The position numbers and the translations under genes were made by a program. The notes beneath the pieces are model-generated. The model worked only from the letters and a program-made list of their open reading frames with translations. It was not told where the DNA came from and did not search any database. Below are positions 2,945-63,904 of a stretch of 64,000 bases of DNA, piece after piece (position 1 is the stretch's first letter; each line of letters starts with the position of its first letter). The stretch is from a virus. Location: the IMG/VR virus record IMGVR_UViG_3300025383_000010. One strand, given 5' to 3'.

Positions 2945-3583
2945 ATGACTGACGTACTTGATCAATGGCATTACTTTGCCTCACCCGTTTATAGCATCAA
3001 AAAACCTGAGTTTCTTGATACTGTACGAAAGGCTAGCAATGATGTATTGCATATTCAACGCAAAGAAAATAAGATAGACGAAATATATCCTGTCATTCAG
3101 GCTGATGTATCAGGACATGACCAATTAATTGAGTTTCATGATTATGTAATCAACACTGCCTGGAATCTGTTGCGCGATCAGGGATACAACATGGACAACC
3201 GATCTACTTACTTCACAGAAAGTTGGGTGCAAGAACATCACAAGTATTCTTCTATGGAATATCACAATCATAATGATTGTAACCTTGTTGCGTTTTATTT
3301 CACTGAATGTCCTAGTAATCCACCCAAACTAGTAATACATGATCCTAGACCATCTAAGGTAATGATTGATCTTCCCGAAGCCGATTTTAGTAACATCTCA
3401 ATGGCTACTTCTATTATTAACTTCACTCCAACTCCCGGAATGCTATTCTTTGCAAACTCTTGGCTACCTCACAGCTTCACGCGCAATGCATCTACTAAGC
3501 CATTCAAGTTTATTCACATGAACATCGCTACTAGATTGAATCCTGTTCCAGTGGTATATCCTGCATCAGCGGAGATTATCTAA
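2945..3583 (+). CDS. Putative 2OG-Fe(II) oxygenase (TIGR02466-like)
   Basis: SWVQ..HNH, HDPRP, PGMLFFANSWLPH; ATG at 2945 after AGGA preferred over TTG 2909. Confidence 0.8.
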   Translation: MTDVLDQWHYFASPVYSIKKPEFLDTVRKASNDVLHIQRKENKIDEIYPVIQADVSGHDQLIEFHDYVINTAWNLLRDQGYNMDNRSTYFTESWVQEHHKYSSMEYHNHNDCNLVAFYFTECPSNPPKLVIHDPRPSKVMIDLPEADFSNISMATSIINFTPTPGMLFFANSWLPHSFTRNASTKPFKFIHMNIATRLNPVPVVYPASAEII

Positions 3584-3996
3584 TGAGAGAGTGCGGTTCA
3601 TGTCACAAATGCTGTGAAGGTCATTTACGCGGAGAAGCATACGGGTATGCGTTTTGGAATAGTAGAAAATGTCATTTCTTGAATGGTAATGGATGTTCTA
3701 TCTATAGTACTCGTCCCGATGATCCCTGCAAGTCGTATAAGTGCATGTGGTTGCAAGATGAAAATCAAGAGATTCCAGAATGGATGAAGCCAGACGAAGC
3801 AAATGCAATACTAACTTCGAGAACCATTGATGATATCTCATATATTGAATTGATCGAAGCGGGCGCGCCAATGAAGGCAGATGTTCTTAGTTGGGCTATA
3901 CAATATACATTAAATAACAAGCTAAACTTATATTATCAGGTCAATGGTGGTTGGAATAAAATAGGTAATACTGATTTCTTAGAGGCAAGATTATAA
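3583..3996 (+). CDS. YkgJ-like CxxCxxCC metal-binding protein
   Basis: RECGSCHKCC...CHFL...GCSIYSTRP..PCKSYKCMW. Confidence 0.75.
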   Translation: MRECGSCHKCCEGHLRGEAYGYAFWNSRKCHFLNGNGCSIYSTRPDDPCKSYKCMWLQDENQEIPEWMKPDEANAILTSRTIDDISYIELIEAGAPMKADVLSWAIQYTLNNKLNLYYQVNGGWNKIGNTDFLEARL

Positions 3997-4238
3997 TGTC
4001 AAGTTTCATGATCAGATTTAACAAATCACGCGGTGAGATTAATCGCGGAACAGTAGACCACGTTTGGCGTGTATTTGAAGATGGAAAAGAATATCTCTGT
4101 AAGCACGTTAAGATCAATGTACCTAGTTATGGTGCAAAAACAGGTGAGGATTGGAGTATGTGTTGTGAAGGCTCGTTGGAAATAGACAGAGAAACATCAA
4201 CACTTACTATTAACCCTCTAGAGGAAGAAAAATCATGA
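3996..4238 (+). CDS. Hypothetical protein
   Basis: Coupled ORF within the operon. Confidence 0.6.
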   Translation: MSSFMIRFNKSRGEINRGTVDHVWRVFEDGKEYLCKHVKINVPSYGAKTGEDWSMCCEGSLEIDRETSTLTINPLEEEKS

Positions 4239-51666: not shown

Positions 51667-53226
51667 TTGGAACAAATTAATCTCTCCGCAGCACATAACC
51701 CAGATTGGGCGTTGTTTCTGCCAGCAGTCTCGTCTTTCTTCATTGCCGGCTTAGGCAAGCAGCGTGAAGGTGAAAACTATTTTGACCCAGCGAGAATCCC
51801 TGCGGCCTTCAACGGTGATGTTGAGAAGTTAAACTTCCTTAATGAGAAGGAAGGATTGTATACGTACAAGTGGGGACTATATTCTGCGGGTCACGCGAAT
51901 CTGGATATTACTAAGGATGACAATAACGAATCTATCATCCGCAAGAGAGATAGACAGAATACTTTTCTGCTAGGAGACTCGGGCGGGTTCCAGATTCTTA
52001 AATGTCAGTGGCCCGCAGATTGGAAAGACCCCAACTGCCCCCGCGCAATGAAGAAGCGTCAACAAGTTCTTACTTGGATGGATGAGTACATGGACTATGG
52101 CATGTGTCTTGATATTCCATCACAGTCACTAACAACTTATCACATTAAGGATAAGAAGACTGGCAAATCTGCACATGGTATCAGCACGATCCAAGAAGCA
52201 ATTACTGCTACTCATATCAATAACGAATACTTCATCCAAAATCGTGATGGTCGCTGCAAGTTCTTAAACGTACTACAGGGTCGCAATCATAAGCAGTCAG
52301 ATGACTGGTATGAAGAAATGAAGAAGTATTGCGATACTAGCATCTACGGTGATCGTGCATTCAATGGCTGGGCGTTCGGTGGTCAGAATAAGATTGACAT
52401 TCACTTGATGCTAAAGCGTTTGGTTGGCATCATTCACGATGGCTTTCTTGAAGAAGGCAAGCATGATCTAATTCACTGTCTTGGTACTAGTATCATGGAA
52501 TATGCTGTTCTCTTTACCGATATTCAAAGAGCAGTTCGTAAGCATCATAATCCAAAGTTCCAAATTACATTTGACTGTGCTAGCCCGTTCTTTGCTGCTG
52601 CTAAGGGTCTTGCTTATAACAATAACACGTTTGAACATGACACTAAGTGGACTTATGCAATGGAAAAGACTGCGGAAGCTAAGAAGTATTCAACTGATAC
52701 CCGCAAGTTCAGTGATGGTGTCTTAGCTGATAATATTCACAAAGTCTTCACTGACAGTCCAGTTACCGATCTAATGGTCATGAAAGACCTTTGCTATCGT
52801 GGTAAGGGCTTTCTTGGTCAGCATGGTAAGGAAACAAAGACTAGCTGGGACACTCTTAGCTATACATTGATTCAGGCTCACAATGTCTATCAGCATATGT
52901 CTGCTGTCCAAGAAGCAAATCGTAGATATGAACAGGGAATCAAACCAAAGATGGTTATGGATCCTCTTGGTCATCTTAACTTTGCTGACATTGTTGATGA
53001 GATTTTCTCATTGAAGGATCGTGAAAAGAGTCTTGCAATGATTGATCAGTACAGCAAGTTTTGGATGCAGATGAAGGCTGGTCAAGGATTCAGTGGCAAG
53101 AAAACTATGAACGCACATACTATGTTTGACCAGTTGTTTAGCATTGATGAACCGGTCAATGATGATCCTGAAATTGATGAAATCATTGAGGATAGTGATG
53201 ATGCAATGGCAGAAGTTCTTGATTGA
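51667..53226 (+). CDS. TGT-fold transglycosylase, DpdA-like (7-deazaguanine insertion)
   Basis: LGDSGGFQI, MCLDIP, LNVLQG, GWAFGG, IHCLGTS, TFDCASP; neighbours folE/queD/queE. Confidence 0.75.
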   Translation: MEQINLSAAHNPDWALFLPAVSSFFIAGLGKQREGENYFDPARIPAAFNGDVEKLNFLNEKEGLYTYKWGLYSAGHANLDITKDDNNESIIRKRDRQNTFLLGDSGGFQILKCQWPADWKDPNCPRAMKKRQQVLTWMDEYMDYGMCLDIPSQSLTTYHIKDKKTGKSAHGISTIQEAITATHINNEYFIQNRDGRCKFLNVLQGRNHKQSDDWYEEMKKYCDTSIYGDRAFNGWAFGGQNKIDIHLMLKRLVGIIHDGFLEEGKHDLIHCLGTSIMEYAVLFTDIQRAVRKHHNPKFQITFDCASPFFAAAKGLAYNNNTFEHDTKWTYAMEKTAEAKKYSTDTRKFSDGVLADNIHKVFTDSPVTDLMVMKDLCYRGKGFLGQHGKETKTSWDTLSYTLIQAHNVYQHMSAVQEANRRYEQGIKPKMVMDPLGHLNFADIVDEIFSLKDREKSLAMIDQYSKFWMQMKAGQGFSGKKTMNAHTMFDQLFSIDEPVNDDPEIDEIIEDSDDAMAEVLD

Positions 53227-53273: not shown

Positions 53274-53735
53274 ATGACTATTGAAACATATATCTTGCAG
53301 ACTCAGGCTGATACTCGCAATAGAATCAATAACGCTGCAAAGCGTATGATTTGGGTTACGTTTCAGCGTGAAGGCATTCACATGTATCCCGGTGCAGACA
53401 CCGACAAGAGCTTGGCAACTGGCGACGAATATGACGTTAGTTTCCTAGGATACCCGCATCGTCACATCTTTCATTTCAAGGTGGCGATTCAGGTAACACA
53501 CAATGACCGTGACATTGAGTTTATTCAGTTCAAACGATGGCTAGAGAATAGCTTTAAGGATGGAGTGATGCAGCTTGATCATAAGTCTTGTGAAATGATT
53601 TGTGATGATCTATATCAGTTTATCGCAAGTCGCTACCCCAACCGTGACATTGAAATCACTGTCAGTGAAGATGGTGAGAACGGTGCCACAATTTACTACA
53701 ACACAACTAAACCTTATCAATCACTAACCATTTAA
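53274..53735 (+). CDS. QueD-paralogous T-fold protein (DpdL-like)
   Basis: EGIHMYP...FLGYPHRHIFHF...HNDRDIEFI...SCEMI...VSEDGENGA. Confidence 0.7.
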   Translation: MTIETYILQTQADTRNRINNAAKRMIWVTFQREGIHMYPGADTDKSLATGDEYDVSFLGYPHRHIFHFKVAIQVTHNDRDIEFIQFKRWLENSFKDGVMQLDHKSCEMICDDLYQFIASRYPNRDIEITVSEDGENGATIYYNTTKPYQSLTI

Positions 53736-53994: not shown

Positions 53995-55173
53995 ATGAGA
54001 AAACTATTCTACATGGGCTTAGAAGCCTATAACGCAAGGTACACTCTACAGCTTACAGAGTGGAACAAGCGCGTCTTTGATCGGCGCGGGATTGATGTCG
54101 TGTATGTCCCCGGTCTGACTCTTGATAATAGCCAAAAGATTGTAACTGGTCAGGTGCTTGATGCACATGGTCGTTCATACTTTGGCATGAGTCAAATGAT
54201 GAACCTTGTTAAGATGATGCAGCAAGGTGAGGTAACGAGCGAAGACGTAATCTACTTTGAAGATATGTTCCAGCCGGGCTTTGAATCATTGCCCTATATC
54301 ATTGACCAGCTTCCCGAAGATAAGCAGCCGAAAATCTTTGTGCGCTGCCTTGCACAGACAATTGACCCCGATGACTTTGTTCATGTGTGGGGAATGGATC
54401 GCTGGATGAGAGCATATGAACAGATGGTATGCTCTAGTGTATCAGGTGTTCTCGCAACTAACGAAGAAATGGTTGCACACATGAAGGTTGCAGGATGGGA
54501 CGTTCCTATCTACAATATTTCAGGTCTTGCATTCGGTAAGGATGAAGTGACTGAAAGAGTAGACAACTATATTACTCCATTTAGTTCACGTAGATTGCGT
54601 GTTGTATTCAGTGCCCGTTGGGATCAAGAGAAGCAACCTGACTTCTACATGGACTTGATTGATGTATGGCATGAACGCTATCCTAGCAAGGATGTTGAGT
54701 TTGTTGTTTGCAGCGGCGGTGAACTAAAGAGCAACAACGATAGCTACATGGCTCGCACTCGCAAGATGGTCGAAGATGGCAAGTTAATCATCTATGATAA
54801 TCTTGACAAGAACAAGTATTACGAGATTGTCAACAACAGTCGCGTAGTGTTCAACTGTGCATTGCAAGATTGGGTATCTAATACTGTAAGTGAAGCTGAT
54901 GCACTCGGTTGCAATGTTCTATACCCTGCGTATCGTAGCTTCCCCGAAACATTTGCAAATGACCATGAGCGTATGTATATCCCTTGGTCTATTGATGATG
55001 CTATTGCTAAGCTAGATGTATTGTTGAAGAAGCCGCATCCTAATATGGGCAACATCAGCGATTGGACTGATGGCACTATTGATCGTATCTGTGACATTCT
55101 TGAAGGCAAGGGTCAGAAGTATCTGCGCGACAGTGCTGACTACAGAAAACATACTCGTGAAGCGAAGTATTGA
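53995..55173 (+). CDS. GT-B (GT4-like) glycosyltransferase
   Basis: VVFSARWDQEKQP, VFNCALQDWVSNTVSEADALGC..LYP.YRSFPE. Confidence 0.75.
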   Translation: MRKLFYMGLEAYNARYTLQLTEWNKRVFDRRGIDVVYVPGLTLDNSQKIVTGQVLDAHGRSYFGMSQMMNLVKMMQQGEVTSEDVIYFEDMFQPGFESLPYIIDQLPEDKQPKIFVRCLAQTIDPDDFVHVWGMDRWMRAYEQMVCSSVSGVLATNEEMVAHMKVAGWDVPIYNISGLAFGKDEVTERVDNYITPFSSRRLRVVFSARWDQEKQPDFYMDLIDVWHERYPSKDVEFVVCSGGELKSNNDSYMARTRKMVEDGKLIIYDNLDKNKYYEIVNNSRVVFNCALQDWVSNTVSEADALGCNVLYPAYRSFPETFANDHERMYIPWSIDDAIAKLDVLLKKPHPNMGNISDWTDGTIDRICDILEGKGQKYLRDSADYRKHTREAKY

Positions 55174-55438: not shown

Positions 55439-55520
55439 GATAAATAATGTTGTTACAGGCGGTAACAACATTGAAGCATATGCTTCCGTTGAGCATTAAC
55501 GATAGATGCTTTGGAGAGAG
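55439..55520 (+). promoter_or_regulatory. Late promoter and multi-hairpin leader
   Basis: GATAAATA 55439-55446; AATGTTGTTAC-AGGCG-GTAACAACATT; GAAGCATATGCTTC palindrome; AGCAT..ATGCT just before GGAG. Confidence 0.55.
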
Positions 55521-55522
55521 AT

Positions 55523-56200
55523 ATGTATAAACTATACAAAATAACCAATTCGGTTAATAACAAGCTATATATCGGTATAACTAAACTGAAGATTGAGCAA
55601 CGATGGTCTCAACATGTAAAAGATTCCGAAAATCCTGAATATCCCCTGCACCGAGCGATAAAGAAATACGGAGCGGATAGTTTTGCGGTTGAACTACTAG
55701 AAGAATCGGATGATCGGAACTATATCAGTGAGTTAGAAGAACCCACTATTCAAAAATACAACAGCAGAAAAGATGGATACAACGTTGCTAAAGGGGGTTA
55801 CGGAGGGGACCTCGGTCCAGAAGCCAATCGGAAACGAAGCACTACCTTATTAAATCGTCCCGAAGATGTTAAAAAGCACTATTCTGATATGCAGCGCAGC
55901 CGGCGGCTAGGTAAAACCAAAGACAATGATCAAGGTAGGAAGGCCCAATCCGAAAAGATAAAAGGCAACGCCTTTGCTCAAGGGCTAACACATTCGCTCG
56001 AAACCAAACAAATAATAAGCGAAGCTAATAAGGGTCCAAAGTCCCAAAAGACTAGACAAAAGATGAGCGAAAGTGCTATACTTAATAATAACGGAGCAAG
56101 ATTTGAGAGACACAACAGTTGTTGTCTCTGTTGCCGCCGAGAGTTTAATAAGGGCAACCTAGTACAACATTTAAGAAGGATGAATAAGAATGAGCTTTAA
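55523..56200 (+). CDS. GIY-YIG homing endonuclease with NUMOD3
   Basis: KLYKITNSVNNKLYIGIT...RWSQH...LEE..I..YN....GYN...GG; THSLETKQIISEA. Confidence 0.9.
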   Translation: MYKLYKITNSVNNKLYIGITKLKIEQRWSQHVKDSENPEYPLHRAIKKYGADSFAVELLEESDDRNYISELEEPTIQKYNSRKDGYNVAKGGYGGDLGPEANRKRSTTLLNRPEDVKKHYSDMQRSRRLGKTKDNDQGRKAQSEKIKGNAFAQGLTHSLETKQIISEANKGPKSQKTRQKMSESAILNNNGARFERHNSCCLCCRREFNKGNLVQHLRRMNKNEL

Positions 56201-56867
56201 TAAGAGTAAGTGTGATCCGGCGTTAGGTCAACAAGTTCACGAATATCTCGTAAAGATGGGAGTTGAAACACCGACAGTTGACAATGGACTGAGCCGTACT
56301 GATAAGATTGAAATCATTGAGCGTAAGTTTAAGGATATTATGGAGACTCTCGGGCTTGACCTAACTGATGATAGCTTAGAGGAAACCCCGAAGCGGGTCG
56401 CTAAAATGTATGTAGGAGAAATCTTTTGGGGACTTGACTATGAAGCATTCCCCAAGTGTACAACTGTTGCGAACAAGATGGGCTATGATGAAATGGTCGT
56501 TGAACGCAACGTGAATGTACAAAGTAATTGTGAACATCATTTTGTAATCATTGACGGTCTTGCTACTGTTGCTTATGTTCCCAACGAAAAGGTTCTTGGT
56601 CTCTCAAAGATCAATCGTATCGTTGAGTACTTTGCAAAGCGTCCTCAGATTCAAGAGCGACTAACTGAGCAGGTATTCCACACTCTTTGCTATATCCTTG
56701 AAACTGACAATGTTGCAGTTATGATTGATGCACAGCACTATTGCGTTAAGAGTCGCGGTGTTGAAGATACTGGTTCGTCAACTGTGACTTGTAAGCTCGG
56801 TGGTGGATTCAAGACTGATCCTGCAGCAAGAGCAGAGTTTCTTAGCATCGCACGAATGGGCAAGTGA
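56190..56867 (+). CDS. folE: GTP cyclohydrolase I
   Basis: ETPKRVAKMY, SNCEHH, GLSKINR, RPQIQERLT, HYCVKSRGV. Confidence 0.96.
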   Translation: MSFNKSKCDPALGQQVHEYLVKMGVETPTVDNGLSRTDKIEIIERKFKDIMETLGLDLTDDSLEETPKRVAKMYVGEIFWGLDYEAFPKCTTVANKMGYDEMVVERNVNVQSNCEHHFVIIDGLATVAYVPNEKVLGLSKINRIVEYFAKRPQIQERLTEQVFHTLCYILETDNVAVMIDAQHYCVKSRGVEDTGSSTVTCKLGGGFKTDPAARAEFLSIARMGK

Positions 56868-57794: not shown

Positions 57795-57852
57795 CAAACT
57801 TTTGATATAAAACACGCAGGCGGTGATAAATACTTTATACGAGGAGTCACCG

Positions 57853-58572
57853 ATGAGCAAGCGATTAACCAAAGACGAGTTTGTTAGTAGAGCAGTTGAA
57901 GTACATCAAGGCAAATATACTTATGATAATGTAGAATATAAGGCTATGCTAGAAAAGGTAAGCATCACTTGTCCTATTCATGGTGATTGGATGCAGAAGC
58001 CGGCTGATCATTTAGGAAAACACGGATGCCCGAAATGTAAAGCTGACAAGGCCGGGGGCAAGTGGGATGACATTAAAGTTCTGTTTGAACAAGTTCATGG
58101 TTCCTATTATTCATACGATGAATCTACCTTTACTAGAATATCTGTGAAGATGAAGATGTTTTGCCCTGATCACGGTGAGTTTTGGCAGAAGCCAGAGCTT
58201 CATAAAAACGGTTCCGGGTGCAAACTATGCACTGCGAGTAGTGGTCCTGGAAAGTATTGTGAATCTGTGTTTGCTAAGAAACCCGAACTCAAAGAAACTC
58301 CCGGAGTTTTATACTTTATAGAACTAAATGATACCGATGGTACTAAGTTCTATAAAGTAGGAATCACTATGAATATGCGTACTAGGTATTATGACTTTAT
58401 TACTCGCAATGGAGGCAGGATTTGTTGGACTAAAGAATCTAATCTGTATGATTGTTTCCAACAAGAACAAGCTATTCTTAAAGAATACGCAGACTTTAGT
58501 TATTATCCGGAACTAGCAATGGCAGGTAAAACAGAATGTTTATCAAAGGAGATTGAATATGATATTCAATAA
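57853..58572 (+). CDS. Homing endonuclease-like protein: CPxHG zinc-ribbon repeats plus GIY-YIG-like C-terminal domain
   Basis: ITCPIHG..CPKC, FCPDHG..CKLC; VLYFIEL...FYKVGIT...R; GKTECL; late promoter 57825-57832. Confidence 0.75.
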   Translation: MSKRLTKDEFVSRAVEVHQGKYTYDNVEYKAMLEKVSITCPIHGDWMQKPADHLGKHGCPKCKADKAGGKWDDIKVLFEQVHGSYYSYDESTFTRISVKMKMFCPDHGEFWQKPELHKNGSGCKLCTASSGPGKYCESVFAKKPELKETPGVLYFIELNDTDGTKFYKVGITMNMRTRYYDFITRNGGRICWTKESNLYDCFQQEQAILKEYADFSYYPELAMAGKTECLSKEIEYDIQ

Positions 58573-59017
58573 GATTAAAGAACTTAAAGAGCAAGGAAAG
58601 CGGATAGGGATAACATTTAGCGCATGGGACCTACTTCATGCCGGACACATCGCCATGCTTGCCGAAGCCAAAAATCACTGTGACTATCTGATTGCCGGGC
58701 TACAGACTGATCCAACCATTGATCGCCCAGATACAAAGAACAAGCCTGTCCAGTCAATCGTTGAACGTCAAATCCAACTTAGTGCATGTCGCTTTGTTGA
58801 CGAGATTGTGGTTTACGAAACGGAAAAAGATTTGGTAGATTTACTCTTGACATTGCCCCTAGATTGTCGTATATTGGGTGTAGAGTATGAAACTACAGAC
58901 TTTACTGGTCGCAAAGAATGTGAGCATCGTAATATTGAGTTAATCTTTAACAGCCGCGATCATAGCTTTAGTTCAAGTATTCTTCGTAAACGTGTAGCAC
59001 AAGCAGAAGGAAAGTAA
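58559..59017 (+). CDS. Cytidylyltransferase (glycerol-3-phosphate CT/TagD-like)
   Basis: GITFSAWDLLHAGH, DYLIAGLQTD, ERQIQL...VDEI, SSSILR. Confidence 0.88.
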   Translation: MIFNKIKELKEQGKRIGITFSAWDLLHAGHIAMLAEAKNHCDYLIAGLQTDPTIDRPDTKNKPVQSIVERQIQLSACRFVDEIVVYETEKDLVDLLLTLPLDCRILGVEYETTDFTGRKECEHRNIELIFNSRDHSFSSSILRKRVAQAEGK

Positions 59018-59018
59018 C

Positions 59019-59234
59019 ATGGAACCTAAGGACCCTAACAAGAAGTTTAATGACCTATTCAAGAACCTGAACTTTTCGTTCACCGTTCCTGTCGGATTCT
59101 ATAACTTCAATCAGAAGCATGAAACTCCTGAGGAAATGATTGCTCGTCTGGACGAGGTTGATGCAGTTGTTGATGCTATGGATAGCTATCCAACTGCAAA
59201 GAAAATGCTTGACAAACTGTATGGAAAGTTGTAA
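59019..59234 (+). CDS. Hypothetical protein
   Basis: ORF with AAGGA RBS. Confidence 0.55.
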   Translation: MEPKDPNKKFNDLFKNLNFSFTVPVGFYNFNQKHETPEEMIARLDEVDAVVDAMDSYPTAKKMLDKLYGKL

Positions 59235-59439
59235 GTTAGACTTACACGGCGTTAAGCATCAAGATGTTGATGCGTTAGTGGAGAACTTTGTTCTGATGAA
59301 TCAGAACAGTTTTCCACTCACCGTCATTTGTGGCAACAGCGTAAAAATGGTTAAACTAACCGAACAAGTACTAAATAGGATTGGATGCGAATACAAGATG
59401 TATCGCTTCGGTGTAATTACAATAGGAAGATTTAAATAA
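59221..59439 (+). CDS. Smr-domain-like small protein
   Basis: KLDLHGVKHQDV...VICGNS. Confidence 0.65.
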   Translation: MESCKLDLHGVKHQDVDALVENFVLMNQNSFPLTVICGNSVKMVKLTEQVLNRIGCEYKMYRFGVITIGRFK

Positions 59440-59672
59440 TGGTTAACCGCGATAAAGATTGGTGGGTAAAGAGAGCCGCAAATGAGCCGGATGATGCTAA
59501 TGTCGGGGCTGGCTGCGAACCTCCTTATGAAGCAGTTCCAGCATCACGAGCAGGAATGGTTTTACTAAGCATTCGTGCTAAGTTTGCCTGGGTGTGGAGA
59601 ATAGGTTTGATTAAAAGAACAACAGCGTTTCGTTGGGAAATGGACCGCTTTTTGGGGCAGTGGAGCAAATAA
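59439..59672 (+). CDS. Hypothetical protein
   Basis: TAATG-coupled ORF. Confidence 0.45.
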   Translation: MVNRDKDWWVKRAANEPDDANVGAGCEPPYEAVPASRAGMVLLSIRAKFAWVWRIGLIKRTTAFRWEMDRFLGQWSK

Positions 59673-59731
59673 TGCTTCACTTAGCCTTACACCTGTCACC
59701 GTGAACTACACACTTTTATTTATCTTTTTGA

Positions 59732-59760
59732 TTGACAAACTATCCTAAATAGTATATAGT
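59732..59760 (+). promoter_or_regulatory. sigma70-type promoter TTGACA-17-TATAGT
   Basis: Near consensus; upstream of the GGCT-queD operon. Confidence 0.7.
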
Positions 59761-59785
59761 AAGACTTTAATATAGGAGAATACAG

Positions 59786-60244
59786 ATGGCCCTCATGCTG
59801 TCATATGGCATGAACACTAACATTGCACAGATGGCTTCGCGCTGTCCTAATGCCATTAGTATTGGCCGTGTTGATATCCCCAACTATCGTCTCGTATTCC
59901 GAGGTGTTGCGGATATTGAAGAAAGCTATGGCGATACGTTACAGTGTGTTCTTTGGGACATCACTGAGAATTGTGAAAAGGCGCTGGATATCCTTGAGGG
60001 CTTCCCAGACTTTTATGGCAAGGAATATATTGACGTAACTTTTGGGAAAAAGACGTATACCGCAATGATCTATAAGATGATCGGTAGTGATCTTGGTTAC
60101 TCTATCCCGAGCAGTTACTATCAAGAAATGCTAGAAGACGGTTATGCTGATCATGGTCTAGATGTACAGCAAATCTATGAAGCAGAAGGTTTTTGTGAAG
60201 TAGAAGATACACTAGACTGGATTAACCGTCGCTATGCGTACTAA
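59786..60244 (+). CDS. Gamma-glutamylcyclotransferase (GGCT/AIG2-like)
   Basis: SYGMNTN..QMASRCP, YRLVFRGVADI, LDILEG.P..Y, PSSYY. Confidence 0.85.
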   Translation: MALMLSYGMNTNIAQMASRCPNAISIGRVDIPNYRLVFRGVADIEESYGDTLQCVLWDITENCEKALDILEGFPDFYGKEYIDVTFGKKTYTAMIYKMIGSDLGYSIPSSYYQEMLEDGYADHGLDVQQIYEAEGFCEVEDTLDWINRRYAY

Positions 60245-60297
60245 AGTGGTCTTTGATACTCACCCCACTATAAACATTCTGCGTGTCATCTAAGGAG
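60245..60297 (+). ncRNA. Candidate preQ1-I-like pseudoknot riboswitch upstream of queD
   Basis: P1 AGTGG/CCACT, loop ending CTCACC, A-rich tail ATAAAC, loop TGATAC pairs with GTGTCA, and loop TCTT can pair with the SD. Confidence 0.5.
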
Positions 60298-60304
60298 AAA
60301 AAGA

Positions 60305-60847
60305 ATGTCTTTTATTGATGATGCAACTAAGAAATATAAGTTAGAAACACGACCGCAGATGTCGTACAAGTATACCAGCACTAAGGAGTGGCATGACGCA
60401 TTCCCGTGTGCATATCGTCAGTGGCGAGCCGATAGCCACTGTAATCAGATTCATGGTTACAGTTTCACTATCAAGGTATACTTTGGTGCCGACACGTTAG
60501 ACGCACGTAATTGGTGTGCAGACTACGGCGGCTTGAAGGACCTTAAGGGTATTCTTGAGGATCAGTTTGATCATACCCTTCTTGTAGCAGAAGACGATCC
60601 GGATATGGATGTGTTCAAATTGTTGCAAGAACGTGGTATGGCTAAGTTGACTATCATCCCTGCAACTGGGTGTGAAGCACTTGCCGACATGATCTATAAC
60701 TTCATCAACGGTGTTTACATTCCAGACCATTGGGGTGCAGGTGAAGCCGATCGTCTTTGGTGCTATCGCGTTGAAGTTCGTGAAACACAGAGCAACATGG
60801 CTTTCCGTGAAGGTCATCGTGAATGGCATGAGGATTTGCTGGGATGA
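60305..60847 (+). CDS. queD: 6-carboxy-5,6,7,8-tetrahydropterin synthase
   Basis: SHCNQIHGYS (CxxxHG), DYGGLK, FDHTLL, GCEALA, VEVRET. Confidence 0.9.
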   Translation: MSFIDDATKKYKLETRPQMSYKYTSTKEWHDAFPCAYRQWRADSHCNQIHGYSFTIKVYFGADTLDARNWCADYGGLKDLKGILEDQFDHTLLVAEDDPDMDVFKLLQERGMAKLTIIPATGCEALADMIYNFINGVYIPDHWGAGEADRLWCYRVEVRETQSNMAFREGHREWHEDLLG

Positions 60848-61017
60848 TTGAATGTTCTTGTGAAGAGGTTTGCTTTCGCTGGGGCAAAAATAGTGATGGA
60901 TCAGGTGGATTCTTCTGTCCACGCAACCCATATGATGATACTAAATGCAAGCAGCTTCTTTACGGAAACATGAGGCCGACCATCATGCACAAGGATACAG
61001 TAGATAATGACAAATAA
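60844..61017 (+). CDS. Small Cys-rich protein, 57 aa (absent from the ORF track)
   Basis: MIECSCEEVCFRWG...FFCPRNPYDDTKCKQ...; fills the gap with ATGA overlap. Confidence 0.45.
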   Translation: MIECSCEEVCFRWGKNSDGSGGFFCPRNPYDDTKCKQLLYGNMRPTIMHKDTVDNDK

Positions 61018-61501
61018 AGTATACTACACCGATGAACAGATTGACACATTGGTTCATAATATCATGCGTCAAATGATCAAGGATCATTGGGTGCCTGATT
61101 ATGTTGTTGGACTGACTCGTGGGGGCCTAGTCCCTGCACTTAAGATTAGTCATTATCTCGACATTCCTATGGAGACACTTAAGGTCAGTCTTCGTGACGG
61201 TGGCGAATCTGAATCTAACTGCTGGATGGCAGAAGACGCCTACAATGGTAAGAACATTCTAATCGTTGATGATATCAATGATACTGGTGCAACACTCAAC
61301 TGGATCAAGAATGATTGGGCATGTAGCGCATTCAAACATGATCCTAAGTGGGACGGTATTTGGAATGAAAGTGTTCGCTTCGCTACATTAGTTGACAATG
61401 ACGTAAGCCTAGTTGAAGTTAACTATATCGGTGAGAGTATCAATAAGGCAGAAAACCCAGTTTGGGTCGTCTTCCCCTGGGAAGAATGGTGGAAAAGGTA
61501 G
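61007..61501 (+). CDS. Purine phosphoribosyltransferase (xanthine/guanine PRT-like)
   Basis: VVGLTRGGLVPA, ILIVDDINDTGATL (PRPP loop), WVVFPWE. Confidence 0.9.
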   Translation: MTNKVYYTDEQIDTLVHNIMRQMIKDHWVPDYVVGLTRGGLVPALKISHYLDIPMETLKVSLRDGGESESNCWMAEDAYNGKNILIVDDINDTGATLNWIKNDWACSAFKHDPKWDGIWNESVRFATLVDNDVSLVEVNYIGESINKAENPVWVVFPWEEWWKR

Positions 61502-61530: not shown

Positions 61531-61738
61531 TATAACTGTACTATGTGCTGCCGGGTCCTTTATATTGTACAAAAACTGGATGCATGAAATCAATTCAGGC
61601 AATAAACCGCAGTGCGTAACAAAGGGCGACATGTATTGTAATCATGTAGGTTGGTGTGATGCAGAAATCGCACTGTACCCAGATGAATATGAAATAGAAA
61701 TGAAAAGATTAAAGAATGACAAAAATCAAGATCAGTGA
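61508..61738 (+). CDS. Small membrane-anchored hypothetical protein
   Basis: Hydrophobic N-terminus; overlaps the promoter, so uncertain. Confidence 0.4.
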   Translation: MFTFQLIIITVLCAAGSFILYKNWMHEINSGNKPQCVTKGDMYCNHVGWCDAEIALYPDEYEIEMKRLKNDKNQDQ

Positions 61739-62576
61739 ACTATTTTACTCAATTCAGGGTGAAGGTCGTTATATGGGTGTACCGAGCGTGTTCTTACGCA
61801 CGTTCGGTTGTAATTTTAAATGCAGTGGGTTCGGTATGCCCAAGGGAGAACTATCAAGTGAGCGAGAACAAATCAATCCCGAAGATTACAAGGAATATGG
61901 CGAACTTCCGCTCGTCACTACGGGATGCGACTCGTATGCATCCTGGGATCCTCGCTTTAAGCATCTTTCTCCCGTTAGGGATATTGATTCCATTGTCAAT
62001 AGTATTATGGAACTCCTTCCGTTTGGGGAATGGCGAGACGAACACCTCGTCATCACAGGAGGAGAACCACTCCTAGGTTGGCAACGTGCTTTTCCTGAAC
62101 TACTGAGTCATCCTAAGATGCAGGGTCTTAAAGAGATTACTTTTGAGACCAATGGTACTCAGGAGCTATCCCCTGCTGTTGCTGATTATCTTGAGGCTTG
62201 GGCATGGCATGATGATCGTCCGCACCCCGGCTTTGAGCGAGAAATTACTTTCAGCGTCAGTGCTAAGTTGAGTTGTTCAGGTGAGTCTCGTGAAGACGCA
62301 ATCAAGCCTGAGGTTGTTGCAAGCTATCAAAATGTAGGTCACGTTTATCTCAAGTTTGTTGTTGCAACAGAAGATGATATTAATGAAGCACTTGAAACTG
62401 TCAAGATTTATCGTGATGCAGGATTTAAGGGTGATGTTTATCTGATGCCAGTTGGTGGTGTTGAAAGCGTCTATGCTCTCAACAACAAGAATGTTGCATT
62501 GGCTGCAATGAAGCATGGTCTTCGTTATTCGGACAGGCTCCAGGTGCCACTTTTCAAAAACCAATGGGCAACTTAA
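61716..62576 (+). CDS. queE: 7-carboxy-7-deazaguanine synthase (radical SAM)
   Basis: ELFYSIQGEG, FLRTFGCNFKC...(insertion)...GCDS, VITGGEPLL, FETNGT, RLQV. Confidence 0.92.
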   Translation: MTKIKISELFYSIQGEGRYMGVPSVFLRTFGCNFKCSGFGMPKGELSSEREQINPEDYKEYGELPLVTTGCDSYASWDPRFKHLSPVRDIDSIVNSIMELLPFGEWRDEHLVITGGEPLLGWQRAFPELLSHPKMQGLKEITFETNGTQELSPAVADYLEAWAWHDDRPHPGFEREITFSVSAKLSCSGESREDAIKPEVVASYQNVGHVYLKFVVATEDDINEALETVKIYRDAGFKGDVYLMPVGGVESVYALNNKNVALAAMKHGLRYSDRLQVPLFKNQWAT

Positions 62577-63904
62577 TGAAACGTATCGGATTCCTAGTTA
62601 GTTCACAGACATTGATTCCACATGGTGGTATCGGTCAGTTCACAAAGAGTTTTTGTGACTTGATGAACACACATGGAATATATGTAGATATTATCACAGA
62701 TAAGAGTCCTCAGGGTGTAGCTGATGAGTTTATCAAAGAACTCAAAGCAAATATCATCTACCCTAGCAATCCAATGCGCTATACCGATCATAGTGCTATC
62801 TTTATGTATGAGGATAGTTACTGCTATGAGCGTATGGCTAACTTTCGTGACGCTACGATCAAGGCATTAACTACGAATATTTACGATGCATTTGTGTGCA
62901 ATACCTATGAAACTATTCAGGTAATCTCTACGCTTGGATTGTCAGATTATATTCAGACTATTGCATACACTCATCTAGAAAGTCAAATCTTCAAAAATAC
63001 TAAGAATCCATTTCTTGACAGTGTAAACGAAATGATGCGTTTACAATTAAAGATGGATAACATCACTATCGGCACACAAAGTACGTTCAATAAATTGCAT
63101 TTTGACAATGCGGTTCATCTTCCTATTCCCCTTCCCGAAAAAGGCTTGTTACAAGAATATGACAAGCCTCGCGAGGGAGTATTGTTTATTGGACGTTGGG
63201 AAGAAGGTAAGAATCCTGAACTCTATCTTGACTTGATTGAACAGACTAAGCTACCTGCTCGTGTAATGACAAGTGCTAATGGTGCTAAGAAGTTTGAAGA
63301 ACGATTGAAGAAGATCGGAGTTGACTACAAGATTGCTGTCAGTGTCATTGGAGAAGAGAAGGTAGACTTCATCACAAGCTGCCGTGTAGCATTCAACCCT
63401 AGCACTGTAGAAAGCTATGGCATTGCATTTCTTGAACAGATGATTCAGCTACCTACGTTTGCGCTTGAGAATCAACGCTGGACGCAGAACTTCCCCAGCA
63501 CACAGTTCTTCACTACCAGTAAAAAGCATATGGTTGAGGATATCAAGTTTGTCTATGAGAGATATCCTACGGCAAAAGACTGGTATACTGCATATGTTTC
63601 AGTGAATCATTTCAAGATTCATGAGGATGCAGCGTTTCATAAGTGGAATCATTGTTTCAATGAGTTTGAATCTAAGAAATCAAACAACAATACAGCTAAG
63701 ATTTGTAATGAAACCACTGTTAAATATAGTGACTTTATCAAAAGTTTGAAGCGCAACATTATCTGTATTGACGATGTTAGGTCTGTGTTGTCTAATAAAC
63801 ATAAGTTTAGAATCATCTACACTGACAAGGAAACTTGGCTGACTAAGGATCCTACATTTGAACCCGTAGAAGAAGTAACTGGAATGGGATTGTTTGACTT
63901 TTGA
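62576..63904 (+). CDS. GT-B (GT4-like) glycosyltransferase
   Basis: PHGGIG, LFIGRWEEGKNP, FNPSTVESYGIAFLEQ. Confidence 0.8.
   Translation: MKRIGFLVSSQTLIPHGGIGQFTKSFCDLMNTHGIYVDIITDKSPQGVADEFIKELKANIIYPSNPMRYTDHSAIFMYEDSYCYERMANFRDATIKALTTNIYDAFVCNTYETIQVISTLGLSDYIQTIAYTHLESQIFKNTKNPFLDSVNEMMRLQLKMDNITIGTQSTFNKLHFDNAVHLPIPLPEKGLLQEYDKPREGVLFIGRWEEGKNPELYLDLIEQTKLPARVMTSANGAKKFEERLKKIGVDYKIAVSVIGEEKVDFITSCRVAFNPSTVESYGIAFLEQMIQLPTFALENQRWTQNFPSTQFFTTSKKHMVEDIKFVYERYPTAKDWYTAYVSVNHFKIHEDAAFHKWNHCFNEFESKKSNNNTAKICNETTVKYSDFIKSLKRNIICIDDVRSVLSNKHKFRIIYTDKETWLTKDPTFEPVEEVTGMGLFDF

Follow-up and report, generated by a model that had tools for sequence, protein, structure and literature searches.

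Class I preQ1 riboswitches (preQ1-I; RF00522; types I-III, for example those of B. subtilis queC, T. tengcongensis, C. antarcticum and E. coli) are small H-type pseudoknots that lie before genes of the queuosine/7-deazaguanine pathway; the features taken here to define them are from PMC11625349. A 5-bp stem, P1, has a conserved G-C closing pair, a conserved cytosine sits directly 5' of the P1 3' strand, a second helix, P2, is made from the hairpin loop and the 3' tail, and the loop that follows P1, L3, holds conserved adenines. The Shine-Dalgarno sequence (SD), or a terminator strand, is part of P2, which leads to repression. In phages, the closest described use of the pathway is in phiST, where 2'-deoxy-7-deazaguanine fully replaces G by a route comprising FolE, QueD, QueE, DpdL and DpdA3 (a distant TGT homologue), with no QueC (PMC10516641); riboswitches are not mentioned in the text of that paper. 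Here we analyse a 64,000-nucleotide stretch (the window) of the 113-kb IMG/VR virus record IMGVR_UViG_3300025383_000010, from an uncultured jumbo phage, in which 60 nt separate the stop codon of a GGCT-like gene from the ATG (60305) of queD. This leader is almost certainly a structured functional RNA, with the architecture of preQ1-I. We think it likely to be a riboswitch; ligand binding, a guanine-like ligand and the ON direction are inferred from the comparisons and folding models below. The fuller description, that it is the sensor of a phage-specific, preQ1-I-like riboswitch of ON type placed before queD, we regard as evenly balanced.

Positions 60245-60288 form an H-type pseudoknot, consisting of the P1 stem and the loop-to-tail helix P2, and the expression platform extends to 60308. 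The elements are as follows.

60245-60249, + strand: 5' strand of P1, AGUGG (98-100% paired)
60250-60253, + strand: L1, UCUU (consensus N-C-U plus 0-5 variable bases)
60254-60259, + strand: 5' strand of P2a, UGAUAC (core pairs take all pair types)
60260-60262, + strand: U of a conserved U/C mismatch, then the 5' strand of P2b, C60261 and A60262
60263-60264, + strand: L2, with C60263 variable (U, A or C in relatives) and C60264 at the position of the preQ1-I specificity cytosine
60265-60269, + strand: 3' strand of P1 (P1'), CCACU
60270-60279, + strand: L3, AUAAACAUUC (10 nt; consensus N-N-A-N-A-N-A-Y-U-C)
60280-60282, + strand: 3' strand of P2b, U60280 and G60281, then C60282 of the U/C mismatch
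60283-60288, + strand: 3' strand of P2a, GUGUCA
60274-60308, + strand: competing hairpin of the window, ACAUUCU (60274-80) with AGAAUGU (60302-08), which covers the AUG
60292-60297, + strand: SD, AAGGAG, 7 nt 5' of the queD ATG
60305-60847, + strand: queD, the putatively regulated gene, coding for a QueD-like 6-carboxytetrahydropterin synthase of the PTPS family (PF01242, 1.9e-17; phrog_2389, 1.8e-37)

The 60-nt gap, both strands of P1, the 15-nt loop between them (60250-64), the AUAAAC with which L3 begins (60270-75) and the position of the SD all agree with an earlier reading of this DNA made from its letters alone (the original prediction), as does the remark that L3 is longer than in canonical preQ1-I. 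The helix UGAUAC/GUGUCA (6 bp, one U-G), also proposed there as a possible pairing, is a covarying P2 in both alignments described below. What had been missed is that P2 goes on beyond the U60260/C60282 mismatch with the pairs C60261-G60281 and A60262-U60280, so that overall it comprises a variable helix of 3-6 bp, a conserved U/C mismatch, an invariant C-G pair and a covarying A-U/G-C pair. By analogy with preQ1-I, this last pair would stack beside C60264 above the G-C floor of P1, which is where preQ1-I binds its ligand. Folded alone, the leader is ordinary (z = -1.28), and the case for structure therefore rests on comparison with relatives.

A QueD protein search returned 80 IMG/VR loci (55-94% identity), and in 48 of these the pseudoknot lies just 5' of queD, whatever gene lies upstream. 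In a MAFFT alignment of 36 distinct queD leaders that was not fitted to the structure (alignment A1), P1 is paired in 100% of cells and three of its five pairs covary. Taking both helices, 93.9% of cells are paired versus 74.7% after shuffling, and the covariation score is 0.548 versus 0.192, values that none of 500 shuffles reached; sliding the partner strand leaves 30-50% paired. A second unfitted alignment, of 140 diverse sequences (A2), gives 87.6% of cells paired versus 67.1%, and a covariation score of 0.521 versus 0.160 (0/500); its pair 24-42 is A-U in 94 sequences and G-C in 46, and broken in none. Covariation among aligned queD leaders, a check named in the original prediction, is strong in both P1 and P2.

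To extend the sample, IMG/VR was scanned with two IUPAC patterns that required the conserved single-stranded bases and did not require pairing; in all, the bases fixed by the patterns were GG, CU, UC, CC, three L3 adenines and UC-GC. At least 291 matches were obtained, and 259 of the 291 listed have all five P1 pairs (about 5% expected by chance). They represent at least 217 distinct motifs in phage contigs, with at least 79 distinct P2a helices among the matches listed. Across the 217 motifs listed, the third P1 pair is U-A in 47, A-U in 73 and C-G in 97, while the R-Y pair of the P2 extension is invariably one of two, A-U (133 motifs) or G-C (84). The column pairs with the highest mutual information are exactly the proposed base pairs. 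In the same 217 motifs there is also covariation of a non-Watson-Crick kind, between the third P1 pair and positions 4 and 6 of L3: C-G is accompanied by C or U at the first of these L3 positions and by A at the second, A-U or U-A by A at the first and by U or C at the second. Contact between L3 and the minor groove of P1 may be the cause, or else shared ancestry; the pattern fits an L3 lying in the P1 groove. Conservation of such bases is also seen outside the pattern matches, in the queD-anchored set, although it was not demanded there: the UC that precedes the covarying R base never varies, nor do the three adenines of L3. When position 60264 was allowed to be C, U or A, it was C in 117 of 119 matches and the other two were chance matches; the pattern included the original C, and mostly returned known loci again. 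No genuine variant with U or A at the conserved cytosine was found in that scan.

A covariance model finds exactly one copy of the pseudoknot per phage record, at queD, with no second copy in the window or on its other strand. The downstream open reading frame (ORF) is QueD-like in 114 of 118 cases. The gene after queD varies widely, and no constant operon partner other than queD was found in the motif loci, so that queD is the only constant partner. Outside viruses, a pattern search of prokaryotes, with each species represented by a single genome, matched 71 times, which is close to what chance would give. Seven of these matches are genuine. Each of the seven has a QueD-like gene downstream and comes from a metagenome-assembled genome, on a contig of 4-32 kb that is probably phage DNA binned wrongly. 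Isolate genomes of bacteria yielded no genuine copy of the motif in this species-representative scan. Nor is there such a leader before queD in the cultured phages with a related QueD or DpdL that were checked (ACP17, BUDD, BUCT-ZZ01, phiST and Erebus), and a full-text search of the literature found no description of the motif. As far as these searches reach, the element is restricted to phages and known from uncultured phage contigs.

Could the conservation reside in DNA, as a promoter or operator in which the pairings are incidental? In 57 of the 217 leaders listed, the element does overlap two promoter-like sequences, a TTGACA-like hexamer within P1'/L3 and, 16-18 nt further on, a TATAAT box. 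We nonetheless consider this explanation extremely improbable, given two interleaved helices with compensatory changes, about 80 distinct P2 helices and an A-U/G-C swap without exception. The element is moreover found on one strand alone, upstream of queD, and leaders of the window type have no -10 box at that spacing, the SD being located there instead.

How close is this RNA to preQ1-I? In common with that class (PMC11625349), the queD leader has the small H-type pseudoknot with P2 formed from hairpin loop and 3' tail, a 5-bp P1 with a G-C closing pair (G60249-C60265, invariant, with GG and CC required by the patterns), a cytosine directly 5' of P1' (C60264), conserved adenines in L3, and a position before a pathway gene with what would be translational control. 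The base before the specificity cytosine is U or A in preQ1-I and U, A or C in the queD leader. Other parts differ. L1 of preQ1-I is U-rich, with a conserved U6 in first position that reads the N9-H of the ligand, whereas the queD leader has N-C-U, the first base being A in 104, U in 65 and C in 48 of the 217 motifs listed and the following C-U being required by the patterns. L3 of preQ1-I is short and A-rich (about 6-8 nt) and its 3' adenine contacts the ligand; in the queD leader it has 10 nt, with conserved adenines and a 3' end of YUC. P2 continues through the U/C mismatch into C-G and R-Y pairs, unlike in preQ1-I, and the SD is outside P2. Finally, the queD leader is always at queD and in uncultured phage contigs alone, which is not true of preQ1-I.

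Searches with known families are in line with these differences. The preQ1 models RF00522, RF01054 and RF02680 gave no match at E<=10 on 60225-60325 (101 nt) or on two compact relatives (L057 and L018), so the Rfam preQ1 models, which the original prediction had named as a check, do not score the leader. The full Rfam library, run with cmscan on 59000-61500 and 60225-60325, returned chance-level matches alone (Yfr17, S15 leader, Pistol and freshwater-2), no family matched the compact relatives, and none reached its gathering score in 20 diverse loci. Across the whole 113-kb record, RF00522 finds nothing at the leader and two weak, chance-level matches elsewhere. The better of these (11.7 bits, E = 0.84; G000:C1:43960-43994, - strand, beyond the end of the window) was rejected as a preQ1-I candidate, being a chance match inside a 70-amino-acid (aa) ORF.

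By analogy, then, the leader shares the architecture of preQ1-I and falls outside the family. Of the original proposal of a preQ1-I variant, the H-type fold, G-C floor, cytosine and L3 adenines have been borne out, while membership fails on L1, L3, the P2 extension and the platform. That the leader is an ordinary member of RF00522 sensing host or phage preQ1 is very unlikely: the overall fold, the 5-bp P1 with its G-C floor, the cytosine at the specificity position, the L3 adenines and the que context would all suit such a member (PMC11625349), but the sequence-model test has already failed for all three preQ1 families, L1 is N-C-U, L3 ends in YUC without the ligand-contacting A, P2 is extended, the SD is outside P2, and no full-length QueC was detected in 50 motif-bearing records. 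The preQ1-II and preQ1-III classes (RF01054 and RF02680) resemble the queD leader in metabolic neighbourhood, in being pseudoknots and in having a cytosine that reads the guanine-like face of the ligand (PMC11625349). They differ from it in being HLout pseudoknots of larger size, with additional helices and another pocket, and they gave no cmscan match.

One of the chance-level matches, to the Pistol ribozyme (RF02679), has a weak structural resemblance, with a 5-bp hairpin, a loop starting GUCU, then AUAAAYA, and a pseudoknot from the loop to downstream sequence. Pistol ribozymes are often phage-associated. We rejected this identity: the score is 11.8 bits versus a gathering score of 34.5 (E = 3.5), the conserved P2/P3 helices and the cleavage-site junction of Pistol are lacking, and the sequence after the 3' strand of P2 (P2') is not conserved.

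The position of the ribosome-binding site (RBS) relative to the pseudoknot bears on how the element would act. The end of P2' is 14-38 nt 5' of the AUG (20-38 nt in most lineages; median 26), and the SD starts 3 to about 30 nt beyond P2', never within it. Every lineage has a hairpin in which either the SD or the AUG is buried and whose 5' arm shares bases with P2' or with the pyrimidine run of L3. Made up of the last three bases of L3 and U60280, this run (YUCY) has a sequence complementary to purines of the SD. The hairpin sequences differ by lineage (CCUAUG...CAUAGG, ACUCC...GGAGU, GUCAUCU...AGAUGAC and ACAUUCU...AGAAUGU), the last being that of the window, while its close relatives use GUCAUCU(U) with (A)AGAUGAC instead. 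As the 5' arm is shared with P2', formation of the pseudoknot should free the ribosome site. In a nearest-neighbour equilibrium model without a pseudoknot term and with heuristic start-codon calls, the mean cost of opening the RBS (-13 to +3) in 214 leaders is 7.2 kcal/mol in the free leader. Excluding the aptamer, up to and including P2', from pairing brings this mean down to 4.05 kcal/mol, with a decrease of more than 1 kcal/mol in 83% of the leaders. Blocking the 5' two-thirds of the aptamer alone leaves the cost unchanged (7.7 kcal/mol).

This arrangement recalls the ON-type translational purine riboswitches, such as the Vibrio vulnificus add adenine riboswitch, in which SD and AUG of the unbound leader are sequestered by a hairpin built partly from nucleotides of the aptamer's 3' strand. 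There, ligand binding frees the ribosome site, and a single pyrimidine sets specificity. The switching logic that we propose for the queD leader is the same, although add-type riboswitches are unrelated three-way junctions, are bacterial and have known ligands. Without ligand, L3 and P2' would pair with the SD or start codon in the hairpin, and translation of queD would be off. A guanine-like ligand would pair with C60264, lock P2 and so remove the 5' arm of the hairpin. The freed ribosome site would then switch on queD, the committed step of 7-deazaguanine synthesis. If the leader is a riboswitch, we judge the ON direction, as modelled here, to be somewhat the more probable one.

The opposite wiring, a feedback OFF switch, had been assumed in the original prediction. 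Here a product of the pathway, 7-deazaguanine, 7-carboxy-7-deazaguanine (CDG) or a related base, would stabilise the pseudoknot, and the ribosome would be blocked sterically or the adjacent SD trapped. End-product repression is usual for biosynthetic genes and for all known preQ1 classes (PMC11625349), the title of one study states that a preQ1-I riboswitch apart from its RBS can still repress (PMC10018353), and in the window and its close relatives the SD begins 3-5 nt after P2'. But the SD is never inside P2, and in most lineages the AUG is 20-38 nt past P2' with the SD in its own hairpin. Since the RBS is already concealed in that hairpin as long as P2' is free, the model has translation off in the unbound state, and blocking the aptamer lowers the opening cost in most leaders, as given above. 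An additional pairing proposed earlier, of loop UCUU with the SD, is possible on paper; the spacing of the SD from P2' is not conserved, and the loop does not covary with the SD. The RBS-hiding hairpin that competes with the 3' part of the pseudoknot points to ON, and we consider the OFF switch unlikely.

Transcript structure is also relevant to the switch. A TATAAT-like box (at least 5/6) ends 3-12 nt before P1 in 90 of 213 motifs, with a peak at 7 nt, which suggests that the motif often begins the mRNA. In the window, the leader is instead intercistronic, behind a strong promoter-like site at 59732-60. In the 57 listed leaders with overlapping promoter hexamers (L017, L020, L059 and 54 further loci), the TTGACA-like hexamer falls within P1'/L3, and the loop of the hairpin that hides the SD contains a well-conserved TG-n-TATAAT. 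Judged from its sequence, a transcript from this internal promoter would lack both the aptamer and the anti-SD arm. Leaders of the window type have no internal promoter.

Several of these observations weigh against an ON-type, preQ1-I-like riboswitch. The likeness to preQ1-I is one of architecture, with no match to any Rfam preQ1 model. In the large set, part of the invariance of GG, CU, UC, CC, the L3 adenines and UC-GC follows from what the search patterns demanded. The energies that indicate ON carry the simplifications of the model used, and about 4 kcal/mol of RBS structure remains in its 'bound' state. Biosynthetic genes are more commonly under feedback repression than under an ON switch; in the window, with an SD just 3 nt after P2', steric OFF control is possible; and transcripts from the sigma-70-like promoter that 26% of the leaders listed have within L3 and the hairpin loop could escape the switch.

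An element that works without a ligand should also be considered. A protein of the phage or host might bind it, either a repressor or activator of translation or, for autoregulation, QueD itself; or the pseudoknot might do no more than occupy the anti-RBS strand, allowing translation of queD from full-length transcripts. Covariation proves structure and not ligand binding, and the RBS-hiding hairpin together with the internal promoter-like sequences could fit transcript-specific control. In the window, moreover, the upstream stop codon abuts P1, so that terminating ribosomes must unfold it. On the other hand, N-C-U, the U/C mismatch, the cytosine before P1' and A-N-A-N-A-Y-U-C are highly conserved at what is the ligand site of preQ1-I, the link to a single metabolic gene is strict across unrelated phage contexts, and no constant neighbouring protein gene was found. 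We regard a ligand-independent element as rather unlikely. The riboswitch reading has in its favour the generic features of such elements: a covarying leader, conserved junction bases, a constant metabolic gene and an expression platform.

If the leader is a riboswitch, what might it sense? The genes around queD in the window are informative in this respect, and are listed here with the promoter-like site.

51667-53226, + strand: TGT-like 519-aa protein, candidate DpdA3-like DNA transglycosylase (signature motifs, weak fold matches)
53274-53735, + strand: QueD paralogue of 153 aa, DpdL-like (proposed CDG decarboxylase), with LGYPHRH (LxxxHRH)
56190-56867, + strand: FolE, GTP cyclohydrolase I (2e-60)
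59732-59760, + strand: sigma-70-like promoter, TTGACA-17-TATAGT (11/12, a consensus match alone), 5' of the GGCT-like gene
59786-60244, + strand: GGCT/AIG2-like gene (PF06094, 7.5e-07; phrog_2520), with its TAA (60242-44) abutting P1
61007-61501, + strand: purine-type phosphoribosyltransferase, between queD and queE
61716-62576, + strand: QueE-like radical SAM enzyme (phrog_2076, 1.6e-54)

The promoter-like sequence at 59732-59760 probably drives a GGCT-leader-queD transcript in the window phage. As to the enzymes, the set corresponds to the phiST pathway (PMC10516641), with FolE, QueD, QueE, a DpdL-like paralogue and a candidate DpdA3, and without QueC; unlike the window, the cultured phages that were checked have no such leader before queD. 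DpdL has been described as a QueD paralogue in which the motif CxxxHGH has Cys replaced by Leu and Gly by Arg (PMC10516641). The 153-aa paralogue of the window, 53% identical to a protein of Acidovorax phage ACP17 and 35% to one of Cellulophaga phage phiST, fits DpdL on its sequence. Assignment of the 519-aa protein is less direct: it has no Pfam, PHROG or PDB sequence match. It does contain invariant GDSGGFQ, WAFGGQ, HCLGTS and TFDCASP motifs; its homologues in metagenomes number more than 6900, and 29 of the 50 motif-bearing records encode the protein. TGTs are the top fold matches to its structural model (pLDDT 68.7), though weak ones (TM about 0.3). Taken together, the motifs and the model suggest that it is probably a DpdA3-like DNA transglycosylase. 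A Pfam search for TGT in the 50 motif-bearing records found none, a result that is unreliable since the 519-aa TGT-like protein itself escapes Pfam.

The absence of a detectable QueC or QueF route from the pathway, as originally noted for this DNA, holds. Among the 50 motif-bearing records, four of them at least 92% complete, Pfam finds no full-length QueC; there are partial N-terminal QueC matches in 10 of the 50, four above the Pfam cut-off. PP-loop ATPases of about 300-340 aa in the relatives match only the N-terminal 60-70 positions of the QueC model (G001:C1:69035-69220, G008:C1:69500-69685, G018:C1:71437-71634 and others), and are not clearly QueC. With no QueC-type preQ1 route in the cluster, the ligand need not be preQ1.

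ON wiring combined with a cytosine reader leads to a list of candidates that includes guanine, dihydroneopterin triphosphate and a 7-deazaguanine. Free guanine may be released by DpdA3-type base exchange, and would be salvageable by the co-encoded phosphoribosyltransferase; dihydroneopterin triphosphate, as the substrate of QueD, may equally be sensed, as may a 7-deazaguanine. Our tentative suggestion is that a guanine-like base or a pterin that signals substrate supply turns queD on, in a feed-forward control of DNA hypermodification; we would call this possible but doubtful as it stands. The phosphoribosyltransferase at 61007-61501 might recycle guanine from DNA base exchange into the GTP pool. 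A similar enzyme is also found in the cluster of cyanophage BUCT-ZZ01.

Other neighbours of queD in the motif loci may be mentioned. A glycosyltransferase of about 230-280 aa (phrog_1962 or phrog_14945) often comes right after queD, in about 126 of 286 motif loci by tblastn (for example L353:4105-4932, - strand; L020:3507-4346, + strand; L028:3514-4344, + strand), which suggests further sugar decoration linked to the pathway. At one locus (L038), a member of YhhQ/Vut_1, a family of queuosine- or 7-deazaguanine-precursor transporters, directly follows the queD that the motif precedes (3509-4153, + strand); Vut_1 is the next gene in three of 150 loci. In the window there are two GT1-like genes (53995-55173 and 62564-63904), and homing-endonuclease-like genes are situated within the deazaguanine cluster: a GIY-YIG/NUMOD3 gene (55511-56200, + strand), which overlaps the start of folE, and a T5orf172/DUF723 gene (57823-58572, + strand). 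A nucleotide search of cultured phages found no close relative of the region.

If confirmed, the queD leader would be a riboswitch class found, as far as our searches show, in viruses alone, and abundantly so, with at least 217 versions. Surveys of intergenic regions in bacteria did not report the motif, perhaps because, as in our scan, isolate genomes do not yield it. With an aptamer RNA of about 45 nt, it would be an ON-type relative of the well-studied preQ1-I fold, itself a model system for RNA-ligand recognition and for RNA-targeted drug design; the pocket of the queD leader differs from that of preQ1-I in the N-C-U of L1, the U/C mismatch and the YUC end of L3, and may recognise another 7-deazapurine, a purine or a pterin. 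For the phages that carry it, confirmation would tie metabolite sensing by RNA to hypermodification of phage DNA, an anti-restriction strategy.

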